A DNA stretch of 52,852 nt from a virus (taxonomy: Duplodnaviria; Caudoviricetes). This document shows positions 4,519-42,153 of the stretch, piece by piece. The translations under genes were made by a program, and so were the position numbers. The first letter of the stretch is position 1. Each line of letters opens with the position of its first letter. The stretch lies in IMG/VR virus record IMGVR_UViG_3300037427_000580, positions 1-52,852 of that record; one strand, given 5' to 3'. The notes beneath the pieces are model-generated. The model did not search any database. It saw only the letters and a list, made by a program, of their open reading frames with translations, and was not told the origin of the DNA.

Positions 4519-5424
4519 TTAACCTTGAAAATTAGTAATTAATTTCATATTATAATTATTAGGCTTGTTTGTTAAGTTTTCTTTTACACCTGGTTTATAT
4601 CTGAGTTTATTTTTCTTAAATGGTCCATAGTCAACATAATGATGCCATCTACCATATTTCCAAACTACTCTAGCTACATCTGGGTGTAAGTCAGCTAACA
4701 TTTTAGATTTATTAATTGTACCATCTACATTATATCCAGTCTTTTTAAACTGATCATTCTCTGTAAATTCTGCGTGGTAAAACTCTTCAGTATTACCACC
4801 CTTAACAGTTTGTGTTGCTGATTTACCTTGCATAAATGCATTGAACTGAATCGTAACATCTCCATCTTTCAATACTCTTAAACAAATATCAGTATCTTCA
4901 TTATATCTACCACGCCACCTGTGTTTACAATCGTTTCTAATCAGCAATGTGGAGTAGATTCTTGTATTTGCTACAAATGGTGGATATTTCTGATTTGGTG
5001 CAATAAAGAATCGATACTGAAATCCAGAGATAGGAACATTTTCAAATCTTTCTACGAAATCTTCGGCAGCCCTAAAGATTACACCACTCTCAACACGTAT
5101 ACGAATATTATTATGTAATCTATAAAAATCATCTATATTATCATCTAGTACCCAATGATAATCTGCACCAATAGATATTGAATGATCCCAACACCAGTTT
5201 CTTGCTCTCCCTGGGCCATCACCATGGTTACTAAAGGGAAGTTCTAATAGTGTTACATAATCACGTATTTTAAAATTATCTAAAGCTTTCTGATAATTAT
5301 CCCAATCTTGTGGTTCAACTGAAATATAATGTGGTATTTTCATTCTAGCTAGACTTCTTGAAGTCTTCATAGATTCGTGGCGTGTTTTTGATATTATATA
5401 AACTGGGTGTCTAGGATTTGTCAT
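4519..5424 (-). CDS. TAGT/GREB1-like (TET/JBP-associated) glycosyltransferase
   Basis: YIISKTR, VEPQD, RARNWCWDHS, HWVLDDNI, NTRIYS, WRGRYNEDTDICLRVLKDG, KGGNT motifs. Confidence 0.8.
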   Translation of the reverse strand: MTNPRHPVYIISKTRHESMKTSRSLARMKIPHYISVEPQDWDNYQKALDNFKIRDYVTLLELPFSNHGDGPGRARNWCWDHSISIGADYHWVLDDNIDDFYRLHNNIRIRVESGVIFRAAEDFVERFENVPISGFQYRFFIAPNQKYPPFVANTRIYSTLLIRNDCKHRWRGRYNEDTDICLRVLKDGDVTIQFNAFMQGKSATQTVKGGNTEEFYHAEFTENDQFKKTGYNVDGTINKSKMLADLHPDVARVVWKYGRWHHYVDYGPFKKNKLRYKPGVKENLTNKPNNYNMKLITNFQG

Positions 5425-6374
5425 TCAAAAAATTTCTCTAATGTTGGCCTTTGTGATGTTTTTATTTCTATATCATTAATTATATAATCATACTCTTTTC
5501 TGAGCAAAGTGTCAAGTCCCAAATTATTCCATTTTTGTTCACTTATACTATCTGCTTTATTCCAAGCACTTTCAAAAAAATGTTGGACAATAAAAGATTT
5601 ATCTGATATCTCATCTATACTAGGCAAAGTATGCCCAAATAATTCTGTCTTTCCATCTAATCGTGTTGGAGTTTCCATTGAGTAGCATTTACTCTCACCC
5701 AACCAAGCTGGCAGAGGACAGAAATATATCGGTTGATAAACTTTGGCTGTAGTATCTGTTGAACATATTTTCTTTACTGTCCATAATACTGAGTTCCATT
5801 CATCTGAACTAGCTTTGGGATCAGTTTCTAATTTCTTCATTATCCAAATTGCCAAGTCGTGTACTTGCTTAGATGTATTGGGCCCAACTTTAATTGGGAA
5901 AGCAGTTAATTCTTTTCCGTCCCAACTATTGTCGTGTACTTTCATTGGTGGTTTATTTTCGCCCCATTGTGGTGCAAATCCACCAGTCTTTTTACTTGGC
6001 ATTGTAGCGAACCAAGAATCATATTCTGGTAAAGGCTTCAATACTACGGCGTCCATATCAAGTACTACACCCTCTACTTGTGATGCTCTCTTTAATCTAA
6101 TTGCATCAGCAACGTGGGCTATTGAATGGCCGTTAGTTAATGCTTTATGAACTATCTCATAATTTAACATTGAACTTGCATCTTTTATTTTGATAGATGG
6201 ATATTCCCAGTATGTAACTTTCTGATATGTCCAGACTTCAACTTCATTGCCCATCTTTTCGTGAGCCTTAAATACTAATTCGTGAAATGGAGAGAATCTT
6301 AATTCACTTCCTCTCCAAGAAGTGGGACTACTTGATTCTGTAGGCTTATTGCTCCAGAATAAAATTATTTTCAT
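5421..6374 (-). CDS. GT32/alpha-1,4-glycosyltransferase-like (DxD) protein
   Basis: FW near the N-terminus, G..V.VWTY, IKDA, AHVADAIRL, GVVLDMDAVVLKPL (cf. SDxxR...GGxxxDxD). Confidence 0.7.
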   Translation of the reverse strand: MKIILFWSNKPTESSSPTSWRGSELRFSPFHELVFKAHEKMGNEVEVWTYQKVTYWEYPSIKIKDASSMLNYEIVHKALTNGHSIAHVADAIRLKRASQVEGVVLDMDAVVLKPLPEYDSWFATMPSKKTGGFAPQWGENKPPMKVHDNSWDGKELTAFPIKVGPNTSKQVHDLAIWIMKKLETDPKASSDEWNSVLWTVKKICSTDTTAKVYQPIYFCPLPAWLGESKCYSMETPTRLDGKTELFGHTLPSIDEISDKSFIVQHFFESAWNKADSISEQKWNNLGLDTLLRKEYDYIINDIEIKTSQRPTLEKFFE

Positions 6375-6712
6375 TCTTCAATCCATCTCATTAAAGAGTT
6401 TTTAGTAATCTCTAACTTAGGGTACCACATAGATTTTGTTTTCTCTGTTGGTTTCATCTCTGAGTCAACTGCTGAATACTTTCGACAAAATTCTTCAAAG
6501 TCTTCTTTGTTTCGAAAATGTAATTGTATAGTTTTGAAAGTTTTTTTATCTTCTTGCTTATACTCTGGCATTTCTTTCCAGTGTTGTTTCCAAGGTTCTT
6601 CAACTACAGTTTCATCAAGTTCTGGCATAAAAGAAGTTAAGTCTGCATTGGGTTTTTCTTTGACGCCCAATAGACTTTCATACTCCGTAGATTCTTTAAC
6701 GTCTTCTGACAT
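6371..6712 (-). CDS. Conserved small protein of TAGT-type loci
   Basis: W..MPEY.QE...HF....DF..F...KTKS.WYP pattern, which I recall next to TAGT genes in phages; translationally coupled to the GT. Confidence 0.6.
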   Translation of the reverse strand: MSEDVKESTEYESLLGVKEKPNADLTSFMPELDETVVEEPWKQHWKEMPEYKQEDKKTFKTIQLHFRNKEDFEEFCRKYSAVDSEMKPTEKTKSMWYPKLEITKNSLMRWIEE

Positions 6713-6721
6713 ATGATTCTC

Positions 6722-6922
6722 CTATAATTTTATAGCTATGGTTACCAGTATAGCAATTAATAACACGTTTGTCAAGATCATTTGAATACATAATATTAAA
6801 TGATACCACACCCATCTATGCTTATATAAATTCTCTTTAGAAAAAGTTAAATCTTCGGCTTGTTCTTCTTCTATTTCAACTGGGTGCTTTTTTATACCGA
6901 GTGTTGTCAACCAATCCATCAT
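6722..6922 (-). CDS. Small membrane protein
   Basis: 66 aa with a hydrophobic C-terminal helix; ATGA overlap with upstream gene. Confidence 0.65.
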   Translation of the reverse strand: MMDWLTTLGIKKHPVEIEEEQAEDLTFSKENLYKHRWVWYHLILCIQMILTNVLLIAILVTIAIKL

Positions 6923-7362
6923 GATAAATTCCTTTTTCTTAACTTATCTAATTTTCTTTTCTTTCTTTGAGCAAGTTCTAAATGATATCTATTTGCTCGA
7001 CTCGTAAATCTTATACCATCTAATGTGTCTATAGCTTGTTGAAATAGTCCAGCAGTTACGTTCTCAAACTTGATAGTATTAACAGTACCATCTAGTCCAG
7101 CATATCTACATCTAATTTCTTTATGTCTTTTAACTTTGAGAAACAATCCAGGATATTGATAATGTGTTTCTTCGTTTAGAAACATCTGTTCTGATTTATT
7201 TACTATAATCGGATTAAACACTGGAATTATAGTCTCAGCATCACCAGGATTACCCAGGACGAATGCTTTTGCATCTATTGATAAATCACTAGCAGTTATA
7301 CATAATAACCGAGTTTTTAGTAATTTAGCTTTGAGTTTGTCGAATATTTCTTGGTTGTTCAT
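6919..7362 (-). CDS. Peptide deformylase-like protein, catalytically degenerate
   Basis: VFNPIIV, YPGLFLKVKR...I...Y, A..FQ...D.LDGI.F scaffold intact, but EGCLS is EETHY and QHEXDH is QQAIDT. Confidence 0.75.
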   Translation of the reverse strand: MNNQEIFDKLKAKLLKTRLLCITASDLSIDAKAFVLGNPGDAETIIPVFNPIIVNKSEQMFLNEETHYQYPGLFLKVKRHKEIRCRYAGLDGTVNTIKFENVTAGLFQQAIDTLDGIRFTSRANRYHLELAQRKKRKLDKLRKRNLS

Positions 7363-7483
7363 AATCTCTTTCTAATTTTCTATTCAATCTTCTATCTTTA
7401 GCTTTACCAGATTTCTTAAAAGATTTTTCCCAGGCTCTACTAAGTGAATGAGTCTTATCTCGTTTTATTCTCTCGTTTGCCAT
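7325..7483 (-). CDS. Small very basic hypothetical protein (52 aa)
   Basis: Manual: MANERIKRDKTHSLSRAWEKSFKKSGKAKDRRLNRKLERDYEQPRNIRQTQS; fills the gap between MTase and PDF-like gene; GGAG upstream. Confidence 0.5.
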   Translation of the reverse strand: MANERIKRDKTHSLSRAWEKSFKKSGKAKDRRLNRKLERDYEQPRNIRQTQS

Positions 7484-8027
7484 ATAAGTTTATCGCTCCA
7501 TTTTTTATCTTCACTTCGTCTTGTTGCCAATCTGGCCTTTCATCAAAATAATACCAAGCACAATTATCTTTACCAACTGATTTACTATCTGGGATCCATT
7601 TTACTCTACCAACACTTATAACACTACGTAACATATCTTGATATGGTATGCTTTGTTTCGTGTGGATCCAATCTGCATCAAATAATAAAAACATACCAAC
7701 TTTACTAGAAAATTTCTCTATCATACTATGTAGGATTTTCCTATCCCAGGGTGGATTAGTTATGATAAATTGTGTAGATGGTTTTATAATCAATTCAAAC
7801 ATATCCCACTTTTCTATCCAATCAGCTTGGGGTTCAATATCAGAAGCTAATTGCAACTTTGCACCTGTACAATGATCTTCAATATGTTCTACTAATGTAC
7901 CATCTCCAGCACATGGCTCAATATAAGTAAAATTATATGGCAAGTGAGGTACCACTGGAAGAAAAGCTTCCAACGGGGTTGGGTAGAAATCTCTTTCTTT
8001 TCTTTCATAGTCACTCCTCTTTCCCAT
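7455..8027 (-). CDS. Amino (N6-adenine/N4-cytosine) DNA methyltransferase
   Basis: DFYPTP, SAM-binding IEPCAGDG, catalytic ITNPPW. Confidence 0.85.
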   Translation of the reverse strand: MGKRSDYERKERDFYPTPLEAFLPVVPHLPYNFTYIEPCAGDGTLVEHIEDHCTGAKLQLASDIEPQADWIEKWDMFELIIKPSTQFIITNPPWDRKILHSMIEKFSSKVGMFLLFDADWIHTKQSIPYQDMLRSVISVGRVKWIPDSKSVGKDNCAWYYFDERPDWQQDEVKIKNGAINLYGKRENKTR

Positions 8028-8701
8028 TATATTCTATTTCTCTTATGCCACATTTCTAAATCTTCGTGTGTGTTTATTTCAATACCATCAAATTTCACTT
8101 TAGCTACACCTATCTCAACTTCATTTTTTAACCAACGTAACTGTTCTAATCCTTCTATTGTTTCTTCTTCTGAAACACCATAGTGTGGATAATTCCACAA
8201 TGCACTTCTTCTATAACCATATACACCCAAATGCCATTCACCATAACCAGTAATACCTCTACCAAACCAACAAGCTTTACTATCTGCTCTAACAAGCTTT
8301 ACAGAATTTGGATCTTTCTTCTGTTCTTCTGGCATATCTGTGTATACAGTACTAACTGGATAATAATCTAATAGTTCAACACATTTCTCTATACACTCTA
8401 CAGTAACATCTGGCATATCGCATTGTACATTTATAAACTTCTCATACTTATCTAGTTCTTTCCATTTCATTGCACCAGCAACACGTTCAGTACCATTGTT
8501 GTACATAAATTGATCAAAGTATACTACATCAGCAAAAGATGAAATTACATCATCATCTGTAGCAATATAAACTGGAAGTCCTGATTTACCAGCGGCTTTC
8601 GCCACATACTTCACCATAGGGATACCATTTAATCTAGCTATAGCTTTTCCATGAAATCTTGTACTTCCATATCTAGCTGGTATGACAATACAAGTATTCA
8701 T
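8027..8701 (-). CDS. kdsB: 3-deoxy-manno-octulosonate cytidylyltransferase (CMP-Kdo synthetase)
   Basis: VIPARYGSTRFHGK, IATDD, NGTERVA, INVQCDMP, DPNSVK, HLGVYGY, EGLEQLRWL; start moved to ATG 8701 just after the gp46 stop. Confidence 0.88.
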   Translation of the reverse strand: MNTCIVIPARYGSTRFHGKAIARLNGIPMVKYVAKAAGKSGLPVYIATDDDVISSFADVVYFDQFMYNNGTERVAGAMKWKELDKYEKFINVQCDMPDVTVECIEKCVELLDYYPVSTVYTDMPEEQKKDPNSVKLVRADSKACWFGRGITGYGEWHLGVYGYRRSALWNYPHYGVSEEETIEGLEQLRWLKNEVEIGVAKVKFDGIEINTHEDLEMWHKRNRI

Positions 8702-8702
8702 C

Positions 8703-10418
8703 TTATGCGGCAATTCTACTAAAGTTTTTAATCTTTTCGAATTTGATTTGATTTCTAAACTTTTCAGCAAGAATATCTCCTTTGTGTGAGATAACAAACA
8801 CGTTAGTTTGATTATCCAATTGATTTAACAATTTCAAAAATTCATCACACCCATTATTATCTAAAGATGCATCAAACACTTCGTCTAGCACTAATAAATT
8901 TGTATTAATAGAGTTCTTTAGTTTAGCTATTGCTCTCCAAGTAAACAGTAATGCTAAGTCAATTCTCATCTTTTCACCTTCTGAAAATGATGCATAAGAA
9001 AATTCATCTCTGTGTCTACTTCTGATTACTTCATTGAATTGCTCATCTAACTCAAACAACACGAAAAAATCTAAAGCGGCAAGATATTTATTAATCAATT
9101 TATTCATAACGGGTACGTATTGCTTAATAATTTTCTTTTTTATTCCATCATCTTTCAACATATTTACTGCTACACCAAACAACTCTTTCTCATTGACTAA
9201 CTCTTCTTTCTTAGTCTCATATATCCTTTTATCATCTTCGTGTGTCTTTAAAGTTTCTATAGCATCAGTAGAATCTACACCCGTAGATTTTATCTTTTCA
9301 ATTTCATCTTGATTTTTCTTTATAGACTTATTTAGGGATTTTATATTTGAATTATTCTCGGTTATCTGTGTCTGTAGTGAATTAAGTTCTGTTTGCTTTT
9401 CCATCAACTCCATAATTCTTTTATCAAGTTTAGCAACTTCATCTACAAGTTTATCTTCACCATCATATATTTCTTTCTGTTGTTCTTCGTGTTCTGCTAT
9501 CTTTTGTTTCTTGATAGTCTCATCAATTTCTTGTGAACAAGTTGGACAATTATTTGTTTCAGCAAAGAACTGGATCTTTTTTTGTATGTTCTTTACTTTA
9601 GTACTCATTCTTTTGTGTATATCATCAAGTTTAGTTCTTTTAGTTTCTTCACCTTTAAGTGGTAAAACTTTCTCTGATAGTTTTTCAATATCTAACAATA
9701 TAGTATTAGATGTTTGTGATAGATCATTTATCTCATCTTGGGCACCATCAATCAATCCTTGAAATGTAGCTATCGTATCATCATTCTGTTCTTTAAGCTT
9801 ACGGATATATGATTGTTGGGTTTCTATCTTATTCATAAGTAAATCTATTTGATAGTCTGTATCACGGATCGATTCTCTGTTATCTGCTACTCTATCTTTT
9901 AGTAGTTTACCCATATTAGAGAATATACTAATGTCTAATAAATCTTCTATAACTTCTCTTCTATGAGCAACAGATAGTTGCATAAATGGAATAAATGTAG
10001 ATGCACCGAGTACAACTATTTGAGTAAAAGATTTAAAGTTTAATTTGATAATAGTTTCTTCTAATTGCTTTTGATAATCTCTAGAAGAACCGGGTTGATT
10101 AAGTAAAGTATTATCTTGATATATTTCAAATAAAGCTGGCTTAATTCCTCTCTTAATAATATAGTCTGTTTTACCAATAGTAAAATTAACGTGAACTTCT
10201 AAACCACCCATATTAATTGAGTTAAGCATTTGAGACTTAGAAATTTTTCTAAATGGTTTATTGAATAGTACAAAGCATAATGCATCAAGTATAGTAGATT
10301 TGCCAGATCCATTTTCTCCAACAATAATAGTGTTTGCATGTTCATTTAATTTCACTTTAGTCCATACGTTACCCGTTGATAAGAAATTCTTCCAACGAAT
10401 ATCTTTAAAATAAATCAT
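8703..10418 (-). CDS. gp46: Recombination endonuclease ATPase subunit (Rad50/SbcC-like)
   Basis: WKNFLSTGN, GENGSGKST, CPTC zinc hook, FSEGEK, LDEVFD. Confidence 0.97.
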   Translation of the reverse strand: MIYFKDIRWKNFLSTGNVWTKVKLNEHANTIIVGENGSGKSTILDALCFVLFNKPFRKISKSQMLNSINMGGLEVHVNFTIGKTDYIIKRGIKPALFEIYQDNTLLNQPGSSRDYQKQLEETIIKLNFKSFTQIVVLGASTFIPFMQLSVAHRREVIEDLLDISIFSNMGKLLKDRVADNRESIRDTDYQIDLLMNKIETQQSYIRKLKEQNDDTIATFQGLIDGAQDEINDLSQTSNTILLDIEKLSEKVLPLKGEETKRTKLDDIHKRMSTKVKNIQKKIQFFAETNNCPTCSQEIDETIKKQKIAEHEEQQKEIYDGEDKLVDEVAKLDKRIMELMEKQTELNSLQTQITENNSNIKSLNKSIKKNQDEIEKIKSTGVDSTDAIETLKTHEDDKRIYETKKEELVNEKELFGVAVNMLKDDGIKKKIIKQYVPVMNKLINKYLAALDFFVLFELDEQFNEVIRSRHRDEFSYASFSEGEKMRIDLALLFTWRAIAKLKNSINTNLLVLDEVFDASLDNNGCDEFLKLLNQLDNQTNVFVISHKGDILAEKFRNQIKFEKIKNFSRIAA

Positions 10419-11163
10419 CTACCCTCTTTCTCTTTACTTTCTCTAAATAATCTGAAATTTCTCTAGTGGGTTTCCAACCCAACTTTAAAACTGGAGATAT
10501 ATCCATTTCATTATTATTTACTTCGAAAGATTCACCTTCCATTTTTTTAACCCATACCATATTAAGATTCTCGACAATATCAGTTAGCTTAGTAGTCTTG
10601 CCTGAACCTATGTTATATACACTATACAGTTGTTTAAAGTCTTTGTCAAGAAAAAAGATTATAGCATCTACAATATCTTCAACGTGGATAAAATCTCTCG
10701 TATGATCTGTGACATATTCTAATCTATTGTAATATAGCTTAGTCATAAACATATCTTTTCTACTACGTGGTCCGTATACTGTAGAAAATCTTAAACCCAA
10801 TTGCTCTGGCATTGCCGTTGCTTCGTTCATCTTTTTAGTTGCCGCATATGGATTCTTCCACCAATGTATCGCACTAGATGAAGAAGCATAGATTAATTTC
10901 TTACCATAATGATGACAAACTTCTTGAACGTGTTTAGTGTTTTCAACATTCTCTCTGTAATACTCTTCTTCATTACCTATACTATTTCTAACACCAGTCA
11001 TAGCGGCAAGATGTATAACTACTTCTGCATCAGTAGAAAATAATTTTATATCTTTCTCTCTTTTAAGATCCCAGTAATCAATTTTATAACCAAGTCTTTC
11101 TAACTTTGGACATAAAGTCCCACCAATAAAGCCATCACAGCCAGTTACTGCTATCTGTGTCAT
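10405..11163 (-). CDS. NAD-dependent epimerase/dehydratase (SDR)
   Basis: VTGCDGFIG, HLAA, ASSS, YAATK, RDFIHVED. Confidence 0.92.
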   Translation of the reverse strand: MTQIAVTGCDGFIGGTLCPKLERLGYKIDYWDLKREKDIKLFSTDAEVVIHLAAMTGVRNSIGNEEEYYRENVENTKHVQEVCHHYGKKLIYASSSSAIHWWKNPYAATKKMNEATAMPEQLGLRFSTVYGPRSRKDMFMTKLYYNRLEYVTDHTRDFIHVEDIVDAIIFFLDKDFKQLYSVYNIGSGKTTKLTDIVENLNMVWVKKMEGESFEVNNNEMDISPVLKLGWKPTREISDYLEKVKRKRVDDLF

Positions 11164-11276
11164 AATATTTCTACTTGAGAAGTTTTCGAAAATGCAACTT
11201 TAAAAAGTTCAGTATGTCTGTAGTGCCAGGGCTGAAATCTGCCAAGCATTTGTGTAGTTGGTTTATGTCTATCCAT
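11160..11276 (-). pseudogene. Truncated HxGH-type cytidyltransferase remnant (38 aa)
   Basis: Alternative frame reads MDRHKPTTQMLGRFQPWHYRHTELFKVAFSKTSQVEIL*, resembling GR(F/W)QPWHxGH nucleotidyltransferase N-termini. Confidence 0.55.
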
Positions 11277-11611
11277 TTTTCCACTCTATAATCAATATCT
11301 AAATAATGGGGTACTTCAAACAGTTGATTTGTATCTTCATATTTACTTTCTTTGATTGTATCCATCCATATAGTAAAATCAGCTTTAACAATATCTCTCA
11401 TCTCTTGACGAGGTGCTATAAAATCTAAAATACCTTTTTGTTGCACCATTCGTTCTAATTGGCGCCATCTACCACGTTCACTAAAATCCCAATCATTATG
11501 TAATGTACGATAGAAATCTGCATTGTGATGTGGTATACAAAAATGATATGCTAATTCTTTTGCTAAAGTTGTTTTCCCTGAACCGGGTAAACCGAATATT
11601 AATATTTTCAT
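11171..11611 (-). CDS. Adenylylsulfate kinase-like P-loop kinase
   Basis: GLPGSGKTT, NAD..R...DWDFS..GR.RQ, DFIAP, WMDTI...YEDTN..F. Confidence 0.8.
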   Translation of the reverse strand: MKILIFGLPGSGKTTLAKELAYHFCIPHHNADFYRTLHNDWDFSERGRWRQLERMVQQKGILDFIAPRQEMRDIVKADFTIWMDTIKESKYEDTNQLFEVPHYLDIDYRVEKWIDINQLHKCLADFSPGTTDILNFLKLHFRKLLK

Positions 11612-13034: not shown

Positions 13035-13592
13035 TTATTCAGCCATAAATTTGTCTAGGGGAGCAACTGTCTTTCTTTTCTTTCTACGTTTATGTTCTTC
13101 AAAATTTACTATGAAATCATTCATATACTCTTCACTCCATTCATTATATTTTATCTTATCAGCATAAGTATTATTATTACCATCGTGAGTATGTCTTTCT
13201 GACGTTTCACCGAATAGGTTAGTATTCTCTGATGCTTTATACTTTGTATACAAATACTTCTTCTCTTTTTGTATACGTCTTAAAAATGCAAAATAAATTA
13301 TTTGTGTAAAATATGCAAAAGGATTTCTGGATTTCTCTGGATTAAAGTTGTCAATATATTGTAAACAATTTTCTACTCCATCAGATATCATTTCTTCTCT
13401 GAATGTATAATTCACAAAATTTGGCTTATATGATAAATGTGTTGCTATCTTCATAATACAATCACCGATATAAAACGGCACTCTAGGGCGAGTATCTGAT
13501 TTTGAATCAATAACAGATTCTCGGTATTTAATCATTTCTGCTAGGAATTTTTTGTTATCCACATAATTATGTTTCTGTCGCTTAGCCATCAA
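13035..13592 (-). CDS. gp55: Late-transcription sigma factor
   Basis: YVDNKKF, PNFVNYTFREEMISDG, NPFAYFTQI..AFLRRI; C-terminal LDKF clamp-type motif. Confidence 0.96.
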   Translation of the reverse strand: MMAKRQKHNYVDNKKFLAEMIKYRESVIDSKSDTRPRVPFYIGDCIMKIATHLSYKPNFVNYTFREEMISDGVENCLQYIDNFNPEKSRNPFAYFTQIIYFAFLRRIQKEKKYLYTKYKASENTNLFGETSERHTHDGNNNTYADKIKYNEWSEEYMNDFIVNFEEHKRRKKRKTVAPLDKFMAE

Positions 13593-41349: not shown

Positions 41350-42153
41350 CTAAAGTGCATCTATTTTTAATTTATCATTCGCATTTTTAATATAGTTTAT
41401 AATATCTAGTCTACCCATTCCTGCTCCAGTTGAATTTTCTAGATAATATTTATTGATGTATACTATAAAAGCTTCGATATCTTTAGGGAAACATTCTCCA
41501 CCAAATCCTAATTCTCCATCAGAATTGGGAGCTTTCATATGACTTGGTCCAATATTTTTCATTTGTGACAAAGCACCAACCATTTGTTCATAATTTATTT
41601 GTGGAGGTAATTTTCTTTTTAATTCATGAAAAAATGTAACTTTAGTAGCTAGAAAAGAATTATAAGCATACTTAATTGCACTAGCAGTTTGTCTATCTGT
41701 TTCATAAAATCTTTTATGATGAAACACTTTCTTCCAAAAATCGATATTCTTTTTAGATGTTCCACCCACAACAAAGATTTCTTTTGTTTCAAAATCTTCT
41801 TTTGCGTGTTTAGCCCGTAAAAATTCTGGACAATATGTTACATTGTCGCTATATTCTTTTATGAGATCGGGTGTTACAGTACTTTTTAATAATACTGGTT
41901 TTGATGTTCCTATTTGATGTAGTACATCTTTTATTATAGTATCATCACACTCACCTTTAAATGCTCTTAGAGTATCAAAGTTTCCAGGTGCTGGTACACA
42001 AACTATAAAAGCATCTGCTTTTGATGATGTTATTGTTAAATTGTTTTCTAAAACTGGATCTATTAAATCTTGTTTTATTTCTTTTGCATTTTCTTCTAAG
42101 TAATCGCTTACTGTTTTTCCTACTACTCCGTAACCAACAATACCTATTCGCAA
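41350..42153 (-). CDS. UDP-glucose/GDP-mannose dehydrogenase-family protein (short form)
   Basis: GIVGYGVVG, VCVP.P, KSTV.P, PEFLR, KY..N.FLA.K, GFGGECFPKD. Confidence 0.88.
   Translation of the reverse strand: MRIGIVGYGVVGKTVSDYLEENAKEIKQDLIDPVLENNLTITSSKADAFIVCVPAPGNFDTLRAFKGECDDTIIKDVLHQIGTSKPVLLKSTVTPDLIKEYSDNVTYCPEFLRAKHAKEDFETKEIFVVGGTSKKNIDFWKKVFHHKRFYETDRQTASAIKYAYNSFLATKVTFFHELKRKLPPQINYEQMVGALSQMKNIGPSHMKAPNSDGELGFGGECFPKDIEAFIVYINKYYLENSTGAGMGRLDIINYIKNANDKLKIDAL

Follow-up and report, generated by a model that had tools for sequence, protein, structure and literature searches.

In phage T4, the alpha-glucosyltransferase (alpha-GT) co-purifies with the sliding clamp gp45 (Sommer et al., 2004, re-tested in PMC13216743), and the contact between the two is reported not to be the main determinant of the glucosylation share (PMC13216743). 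The hydrophobic, acidic C-termini of gp43, gp55 and gp33 bind gp45 interchangeably at one shared site; the gp55 motif is preceded by a flexible linker of divergent sequence, and an 11-residue polymerase tail has been co-crystallized with the RB69 clamp (PMC2988020). In T2 and T6, an enzyme of the TAGT (TET-associated glycosyltransferase) family adds a second glucose to alpha-glucosyl-hydroxymethylcytosine, the hydroxymethylcytosine being supplied via dCMP hydroxymethylase (PMC13216743, PMC13390438), and in metavirome contigs 14 and 43 an enzyme named GT-II adds the first sugar to 5-hydroxymethylcytosine (5hmC) and an upstream GT8-like enzyme, GT-I, adds the second (PMC8256090; bioRxiv 10.1101/2023.12.21.572611). 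A ParB-like protein is known to activate a phage T-dioxygenase on double-stranded DNA (the 5mYOX176/ParB176 pair), and glycosyltransferases (GTs) and ParBs are the commonest neighbors of 5mYOX genes, with terminases also frequent (PMC13229309). Here, we describe a three-gene module, encoding a small partner protein, a GT-A fold glycosyltransferase and a TAGT, at positions 4519–6712 on the minus strand of IMG/VR virus record IMGVR_UViG_3300037427_000580. The DNA analyzed (the window) is this complete record of 52,852 bases, for which CheckV estimates a completeness of 29%. The evidence tips modestly in favor of reading the module as an accessory, clamp-tethered DNA glycosylation cassette of a marine T4-like myovirus.

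The window is a fragment of a T4-like myovirus: it encodes gp55, gp47, gp46, UvsW, UvsY, the major head protein, portal, sheath, tube and terminase. Its G+C content is 34.8%, and the minus strand carries every gene. The structure of the module can be read directly from the sequence, with the partner first (6371–6712, minus strand, 113 amino acids), the GT-A enzyme in the middle (5421–6374, minus strand, 317 amino acids) and the TAGT last (4519–5424, minus strand, 301 amino acids). At both junctions (6371–6374 and 5421–5424), the plus strand reads tcat, which corresponds to an ATGA stop/start overlap on the coding strand; coordinates and junctions alike bear out the three ATGA-overlapping genes reported in a preliminary description of this DNA. 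The TAGT call made there is also firm, with a full-length match to PF20691 (E 1e-42; 146.8 bits against a cut-off of 27.5; profile positions 2–205 of 205) and a match to phrog_842, "beta-glucosyl-HMC-alpha-glucosyltransferase" (E 2.2e-44). As a clear PF20691 member, the window TAGT is like the T2/T6 beta-glucosyl-HMC-alpha-glucosyltransferase; the T2/T6 system is hydroxymethylase-based, whereas the window shows no hydroxymethylase and pairs its TAGT with another GT. The GT-I/GT-II pairs resemble the window module in layout: they too consist of a GT8-like GT-A gene and then a JGT/TAGT-like gene, in the same order and in a marine metavirome. This likeness is one of description, and the GT-I/GT-II clusters carry a C5-methyltransferase and a TET, neither of which was found beside the window module. 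Conversely, the accessible portions of those reports describe no clamp tail and no partner with the X domain presented below, both of which are present in the window module. The T4 alpha-GT offers the likeness of a T4-type phage DNA glycosyltransferase that associates with the replicative clamp, allowing DNA to be modified in the wake of replication; it belongs to family PF11440 (PMC13216743), whereas the enzyme considered here has a GT-A fold with a DxD motif and a polymerase-like tail, and its clamp binding is predicted.

The GT-A enzyme ends in TLEKFFE (5424–5444, minus strand), a putative gp45-binding motif of the gp43 type. The preliminary description had pointed to a resemblance between this end (...RPTLEKFFE) and that of the window's own gp55 late sigma factor (...APLDKFMAE; 13035–13592, minus strand; phrog_234, E 4.4e-57), and both ends were verified; the gp55 end is its epitope for binding the sliding clamp (PMC2988020). 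The resemblance exceeds chance. The pattern L[DEK][DEKQRL]F[FMILV], which was written after the data had been seen, occurs within the last 10 residues of 2 of the 52 window genes, the GT and gp55, compared with 0.027 expected from shuffled tails, and these are its only two occurrences in 17,000 residues. In the structure prediction for the GT-A enzyme, the tail follows a low-confidence linker (residues 301–311) and forms a short helix (residues 312–316). The ending [ST]L[DE][DEK]F[FM] was found in 10 of 120 listed homologues and in 11 of 78 viral loci, the latter collected by a degenerate-pattern scan of IMG/VR for the GT. The motif is usually followed by no or one residue, with six more in one homologue; the remaining homologues stop approximately 15 residues earlier or end otherwise. 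The variants are SLDEFF, SLDDFF, SLDDFM, SLEDFFE and TLEKFFE. Among relatives of the window type, the motif is fixed while the linker changes (SQRPTLEKFFE, TQTSTLEKFFA and TQISSLEKFFA), and this in the most diverged gene of the locus, with 77% identity versus 88–91% for its neighbors. The tail behaves like a short linear motif, conserved in itself and placed behind a variable, flexible linker. The clamp motifs of T4 gp43, gp55 and gp33 are likewise hydrophobic, acidic peptides at the extreme C terminus behind variable, flexible linkers (PMC2988020, PMC7892883); they differ in belonging to a polymerase or transcription factors, whereas the motif described here sits on a glycosyltransferase.

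The polymerase is the closest match. When gp43 was identified by PF00136 in related records, all nine C-termini carried a clamp-type tail (SSLEDFFG, SSLESFFG, ATLEDFFG, STLENFFT, MTLEDFWK, ASLEDFFS and ATLEDFFS/T), and four of the nine came from records that also hold a tailed GT. The GT tail is closer to these gp43 tails than to the gp55 tail; gp55 ends in KLELFMV or DLKDFLE in three relatives, and a tail of the D[KQR]F[IMV] type is kept in about 37 of 79 further gp55 relatives. The motif is also specific: across 2,787 distinct open reading frames (ORFs) of at least 60 amino acids (six frames; 1.22 Mb of loci plus the window), the expression [ST]L[DE].F[FMW].{0,2}$ matched 24, comprising 14 gp43 and 10 GT sequences and no other family, with 5 of the 14 gp43 matches assigned by identical tail and length only. 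We know of no gp43-type C-terminal motif described for the T4 alpha-GT, and a search limited to the available literature returned no description of a gp43-like tail, or of any clamp-binding motif, on a phage glycosyltransferase.

Some variation in these C-termini was noted in passing. In about 42 of the 79 gp55 relatives (L086–L165), the hydrophobic C-terminal epitope is missing and the protein finishes with a stretch of basic residues and then ...VHEE or the like, so that marine T4-like phages may not all couple late transcription to the clamp in the same way. Two records of marine T4-like phages have gp43 split into adjacent ORFs of approximately 480–485 and 362–368 amino acids (L174 in G006; L175/L176 in G009), with the clamp-binding tail on the second piece. 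Other GT subclades (P0011, P0020 and P0031; L035 and L038) end in ...NQG[IL]FEFA... or ...PNFLFNGKRTA; judging from a resemblance, these tails could be alternative clamp-binding peptides, for example for the host beta clamp.

The preliminary description had looked to a multimer prediction of the C-terminal peptide with the gp45 of this phage. The pair folded here was instead that of one tail-bearing relative, with the gp45 trimer (37-row alignment) and GT residues 284–315 taken from the same record. The complex scored 0.59, 0.60 and 0.60, compared with 0.02 for the best of three controls, a result classed by the tool as "weak support." Of 80 solved complexes, 58 reach the pass mark, as do 2 of 110 mismatched pairs; a score no higher than 0.60 is found for just 7 of the 80 and for both mismatches that pass. 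At least 87% of contacts were common to the complex runs, and the pLDDT of the partner chain was at least 46. As a model, the complex shows likeness to a clamp ligand rather than binding. Docking of the GT on the clamp, as the preliminary description had proposed, is supported as a prediction, best by the gp43-like tail and further by the conserved motif behind a variable linker, the presence of the tail in large T4-like phages only and the weakly supported complex; on sequence and model together, a clamp tether for the GT-A enzyme is likely.

The distribution of the tail follows genome size, which was estimated by dividing the length of each record by its CheckV completeness. Records with the tail belong to phages of about 135–208 kb. 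gp45 (PF09116) was found in four of the five larger tail-bearing records and in none of 46 further records, namely six short tail-bearing fragments and 40 tail-less records, six of the latter at least 90% complete. The ParB_N domain shows the opposite pattern, with no match in the six tail-bearing records (the window, where it was not found, and five relatives) versus 22 of the 40 tail-less ones. Fisher's tests on the distribution gave p values of 0.022 (ParB_N contrast) and 0.0018, which are not true probabilities because the records are related and not phylogenetically independent. On a GT tree of 110 proteins, the tail needs at least three changes; on a tree of 51 locus rows, it needs three, and well-supported branches make two of these unavoidable. 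Nested among the tail bearers on the GT tree is a clade without the tail, whose partners are ParB_N-X proteins and whose phages measure approximately 51–55 kb. This pattern suggests that ParB_N and gp45 are alternative tethers of the GT module.

The tail sits on an enzyme whose family is less easily named. The preliminary description called it GT32-like, and PF04488 (GT32, Gly_transf_sug) is indeed the sole family to match at E ≤ 1, which leaves no GT8 sequence-family match; the PF04488 match itself (E 0.0036, 18.4 bits) lies under the cut-off of 23, and a precomputed PF04488 call exists for only 2 of the 120 homologues listed. The 123 homologues found at E ≤ 0.001 are all unnamed metagenome proteins, and a tblastn search against 50,697 GenBank phage records gave no match. 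The AlphaFold2 (AF2) model is confident (pLDDT 92.1, pTM 0.90) and has a GT-A fold of the GT8/GT32-like, retaining type. It carries a DxD motif, D106-M-D108, for metal and nucleotide-sugar binding (6051–6059, minus strand; DNA coordinates computed from residue numbers), and D106 and D108 are invariant among 37 aligned homologues. The top structural match with VIA-align was the GT8 domain of WbbM (6u4b_A; Z 12.5, rmsd 4.0, 230 aligned residues), followed by the Skp1 alpha-GalT (6mw8_A, Z 11.6), glycogenin (3u2t_A, Z 11.4) and SetA (Z 11.4), with the GT8 entry 3tzt_B (Z 10.6) and LgtC (Z 9.4) lower; the GT32 enzyme Och1 (9n3s_B) gave Z 9.4, rmsd 3.8 and 181 aligned residues. The ranking is soft because the top Z values lie within approximately 1 of each other. 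Foldseek placed the SetA GT domain first (E 1.1e-5), with LgtC and GTB also at approximately E 1e-5, and PBCV-1 A64R is also among the closest solved folds. A GT-A fold with a DxD motif, as GT32 members have, is present but is common to many GT-A families. Given the weak PF04488 match and the GT8-type fold neighbors, "GT32-like" is therefore only shorthand for a retaining-type DxD GT-A enzyme: the GT-A fold with its invariant DxD is present, membership by sequence falls short of the Pfam cut-off, and the fold is nearer to GT8.

The partner consists of a disordered N-terminal third and an unnamed domain of approximately 70 amino acids, here called X, with the signature W..MPE[YF].QED ... F.N.ED..F ... 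KTKS.WYP. Pfam and PHROG assigned the partner to no family, and the ESM Atlas gave unnamed viral clusters only. In the AF2 model, which is of low confidence (mean pLDDT 66), residues 1–40 are unstructured and residues 61–109 form a beta-alpha-beta-alpha core. The partner is homologous to the C-terminal domain of natural GT + ParB_N + X fusions of approximately 510 amino acids (BLASTP E 2e-12; Pfam). A profile search with X returned 3,285 representative clusters at E ≤ 0.001, a number that falls to 2,293 at E ≤ 1e-10, with lengths mostly of approximately 85–130 amino acids (free X) and 190–250 amino acids. Of ten longer X-bearing proteins scanned with Pfam, six were TAGT fusions, and one each carried a PF04488 GT, a ParB_N and a LAGLIDADG-like stretch, with one giving no match; ParB_N was also found in four of seven locus partners of 189–219 amino acids and in one fused GT that was scanned. 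X is fused to TAGT, GT or ParB_N and is therefore a dedicated companion domain of DNA-type glycosyltransferases. The architecture recalls ParB176, in which a long linker joins an N-terminal nucleotide-binding domain to a small C-terminal one; relatives of the window partner are built from ParB_N, a linker and X. The ParB-dependent T-dioxygenase systems differ in that the window partner has lost ParB_N and that a dioxygenase was not found. The internal DLTSFM of the partner, which the preliminary description had likened to the GT and gp55 tails, is present at 6626–6643 (minus strand) and lies in the unstructured N-terminal part. A loose version, [STDNQAG][LFV]x[DSTEA][FLMI][FLMIV], defined after the data had been seen, precedes the X core in 18 of 22 short partners; by sequence it is a conserved short motif, to which we assign no role.

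The module recurs in other phages in varied arrangements. When the 78 GT loci were searched by BLASTP with the window proteins, most of them also contained a TAGT, and 26 had an X partner beside the GT. Using hidden Markov models, a TAGT was found in 21 of 28 larger GT-holding records and in all six of those at least 90% complete, which are small phages of 28–35 kb. Natural fusions of the types GT-ParB_N-X, GT-TAGT, X-TAGT and X-GT were observed. The order is partner-GT-TAGT in the window and TAGT-partner-GT, directly after gp43, in one T4-like clade; in one record, the GT is 7 kb from the partner and TAGT. Copies of the window type were found in five metagenome contigs at 77–100% identity and in the same order, and a blastn search of the region against cultured phages gave matches to the TAGT part only, at 68–76% identity. 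Five records with a gp55 that is 64–85% identical to that of the window lack both the GT and the TAGT, and one of these is 146 kb long and 76% complete; the cassette is accessory because such close gp55 relatives lack both genes. Two further features of these loci were recorded. In the second T4-like clade, a conserved protein of 306–313 amino acids with no Pfam match adjoins the tailed GT in 11 loci (L003:6416–7357, L005:10967–11908 and nine others), and in phages of approximately 28–35 kb (L074, L021, L026, L057 and others) the GT/TAGT/ParB-X genes end the early block and are followed by the small and large terminase genes and the portal gene.

In the model that we favor, transcription of the cassette probably falls in the early or middle period, and its three genes are translationally coupled. 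The TAGT would put the first sugar on a modified pyrimidine of phage DNA, and the upstream GT8/GT32-like GT-A enzyme would extend it or add a sugar; by analogy, addition of a second sugar to the TAGT product by the GT-A enzyme is plausible. The [ST]L[DE]xFF tail, as a copy of the gp43 clamp-binding tail, would occupy the hydrophobic pocket of gp45, the sliding clamp, and would hold the GT-A enzyme at newly replicated DNA. On double-stranded DNA, the X partner, a free-standing copy of the X domain, likely bridges the two enzymes or activates them. Where gp45 is lacking, in smaller phages, a ParB_N on the enzyme or the partner would replace the tail. The data themselves show how the genes are arranged, their families and folds, how closely and how specifically the motif matches, which domains fuse and where the module occurs; that the tail binds gp45, that DNA is acted on, in which order sugars are added and which sugar and base take part is what we infer, with published precedent as the guide to substrate and order.

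Several observations weigh against this model. gp45 and gp43 were not found in the window, which is a fragment and for which the gp45 search control was silent; a metagenome scan yielded six loci, none reaching gp45 or gp43, and the 56.7-kb contig extends at the opposite end. The passing score of the complex may reflect memory of the model because a gp45-peptide complex has already been solved (RB69; PMC2988020). The distribution amounts to only two independent contrasts, both concordant in pairing the tail with a large genome and a short partner (sign test p 0.5), five tail-less GT homologues in two clades come from phages of approximately 172–228 kb, and no partner or gp45 was found in the large-phage tail-less clades, for which fragments of up to 58 kb are available. 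GT-A enzymes of this fold, judged by the structural matches, usually act on glycans, lipids or proteins, and "orphan" GT contigs have been treated as less obviously DNA-directed (bioRxiv 10.1101/2023.12.21.572611). No enzyme that would make the acceptor base was found either: in the 28 related records, the ThyA family was found in one, the C5-methyltransferase family (PF00145) in none, with its control positive in 9 of 14 genomes, and Tet_JBP in none, a negative that is weak because no control genome matched. Within the window, no Tet_JBP or thymidylate-synthase-family gene was found; the statement in the preliminary description that the window holds no TET/JBP or hydroxymethylase is accordingly correct for a record that is 29% complete and with a silent Tet_JBP control. 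Many phage dioxygenases escape PF12851 (PMC13229309). Scanning 20 conserved or mid-sized neighbor proteins in the small complete phages for a hidden dioxygenase gave no oxygenase; these neighbors matched terminase, portal, sigma-like, phosphoesterase, replication-organizer-like and UDP-glucose dehydrogenase proteins.

A broader proposal goes beyond the cassette itself. DNA glycosyltransferases of uncultured marine phages might use interchangeable sliding platforms, reached in T4-like phages through the gp45 tail taken over from the polymerase and in small phages through ParB_N, a CTP-gated ParB clamp domain, on the enzyme or its X partner, and the acceptor or precursor pathway may be an undescribed one because no known way of making a hydroxymethylated base is evident in complete genomes with TAGT and GT. 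We regard this proposal as a possible but doubtful one.

The tail might instead dock onto another protein of the cassette, such as the X partner or the TAGT, with its likeness to gp43 a case of convergence on a generic hydrophobic-acidic peptide. In all ten tail-bearing loci in which a partner was found, the partner is of the short X-only form, and the fused GT-ParB_N-X proteins have no tail, which means that tail and covalent linkage alternate. A semi-conserved motif of the partner itself, [ST]Lx[DS]F[LMI], in 18 of 22 short partners further hints at peptide contacts within the module. Such docking is nevertheless unlikely, because the tail equals the gp43 tail residue for residue and no other family among the 2,787 ORFs shares it, and because the tail is absent wherever gp45 is lacking, even though X partners are present there. 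The fold with gp45 (0.60 versus 0.02 with an unrelated protein in the place of gp45) points the same way, with weak support.

The second alternative concerns the substrate, with the cassette modifying a glycoconjugate of the host or virion (lipopolysaccharide, capsule or capsid protein) and not DNA, perhaps with sugars from KdsB-like and epimerase genes in the vicinity. The closest folds of the GT-A enzyme (WbbM, glycogenin, Skp1 GalT, SetA, LgtC and PBCV-1 A64R) do act on polysaccharides, proteins or glycans; the 28 records, six of them at least 90% complete, yielded no hydroxymethylase, TET or C5-methyltransferase; and the module has the KdsB-like gene, an epimerase gene and a kinase gene at a distance of no more than 5 kb. 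Set against this, the TAGT members that have been tested act on DNA (T2/T6, PMC13216743; GT-II, PMC8256090), the GT, partner and TAGT are repeatedly fused or adjacent to ParB_N, and the tail copies a motif for docking on the replisome. A 77%-identical relative, moreover, keeps the partner and GT without KdsB or epimerase genes (its locus ends at the GT, so the TAGT is outside coverage), and a role for the KdsB-like, epimerase and kinase genes as necessary suppliers of the sugar donor was rejected on the same ground. Modification of a glycoconjugate is for these reasons improbable.

A regulatory role, in which the tail binds gp45 to compete with gp43, gp55 or gp33 for clamp sites, so timing replication or late transcription, or simply concentrates the enzyme in replication factories without processive catalysis behind the fork, would suit the shared binding site and interchangeable tails of gp45 ligands (PMC2988020) and the minor effect of the alpha-GT contact on the glucosylation share in T4 (PMC13216743), but is very improbable, as phages without the clamp use a DNA-associated ParB_N on enzyme or partner, which fits DNA tethering better than competition for the clamp.

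The preliminary description also spoke of an undescribed pathway, which is correct in part. Association of the T4 alpha-GT with gp45, two-GT modification and ParB-linked DNA modification are all in print. As far as our searches reach, the new elements are the GT-A enzyme with the clamp-binding tail of the polymerase, the alternation of tail and ParB_N, the marking of DNA glycosyltransferases by the X domain and the presence of GT and TAGT together in complete genomes that show no known way of making a hydroxymethylated base. The seven residues copied from the polymerase provide a sequence-level handle on the coupling of DNA modification to replication, together with independent evidence that "orphan" phage GT pairs without a nearby TET or hydroxymethylase, which form a large class, act on DNA. 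The 3,285 representative clusters define X as a widespread, unnamed accessory domain that marks DNA glycosyltransferases. If the acceptor is neither 5hmC nor 5hmU (the uracil counterpart), the cassette would represent new DNA chemistry, with consequences for restriction evasion and for the reading of marine viromes.

Transcription signals around the module were called as consensus matches only, for both sigma-70-like and T4 late promoters. A sigma-70-like match, TTGACA-17-TATACT with a TG (6747–6775, minus strand; 11 of 12 consensus positions), lies 35 nucleotides upstream of the partner start codon. A consensus scan of the window placed no T4 late-promoter motif, TATAAATA, near the module, and there is no terminator-like site 3' of the TAGT. 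Elsewhere in the window, TATAAATA occurs in 11 copies between 17170 and 50842 (minus strand), all on the coding strand; most of them, by position, are just upstream of structural-gene ORFs, and the total is not above chance (11 versus 9.2 expected).

The upstream neighbors of the module are a peptide deformylase gene (6919–7362, minus strand) and a gene for a 190-amino-acid DNA methyltransferase (7455–8027, minus strand). The methyltransferase is of the amino type, with an NPPW motif, and not the adjacent C5-methyltransferase of the two-GT clusters; it matches phrog_799 (E 1.8e-26) over only the middle of the 458-position profile, and a methyltransferase with 57% identity also adjoins the TAGT in a differently arranged locus (L013). 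Farther upstream are genes, all on the minus strand, for a KdsB-like CMP-Kdo synthetase (8027–8797; match to PDB 3k8d, E 4.4e-21), a short NAD-dependent sugar epimerase/dehydratase (10405–11163) and a P-loop kinase (11171–11611). The three are inserted around gp46, between gp47 and the methyltransferase and no more than 5 kb from the module; the KdsB-like and epimerase genes are variable accessory genes because they are absent from the 77%-identical relative locus. As listed, the KdsB-like ORF has a TTG start and a 95-nucleotide overlap with gp46, and the true start is probably a downstream ATG because the similarity to KdsB begins near residues 31–37. In the structural block, an ORF at 41350–42153 (minus strand) is similar to the "UDP-glucose dehydrogenase" PHROG phrog_9148 (E 6.8e-32), and in the second T4-like clade a full UDP-glucose/GDP-mannose dehydrogenase is encoded near the module (L011:4753–5943).

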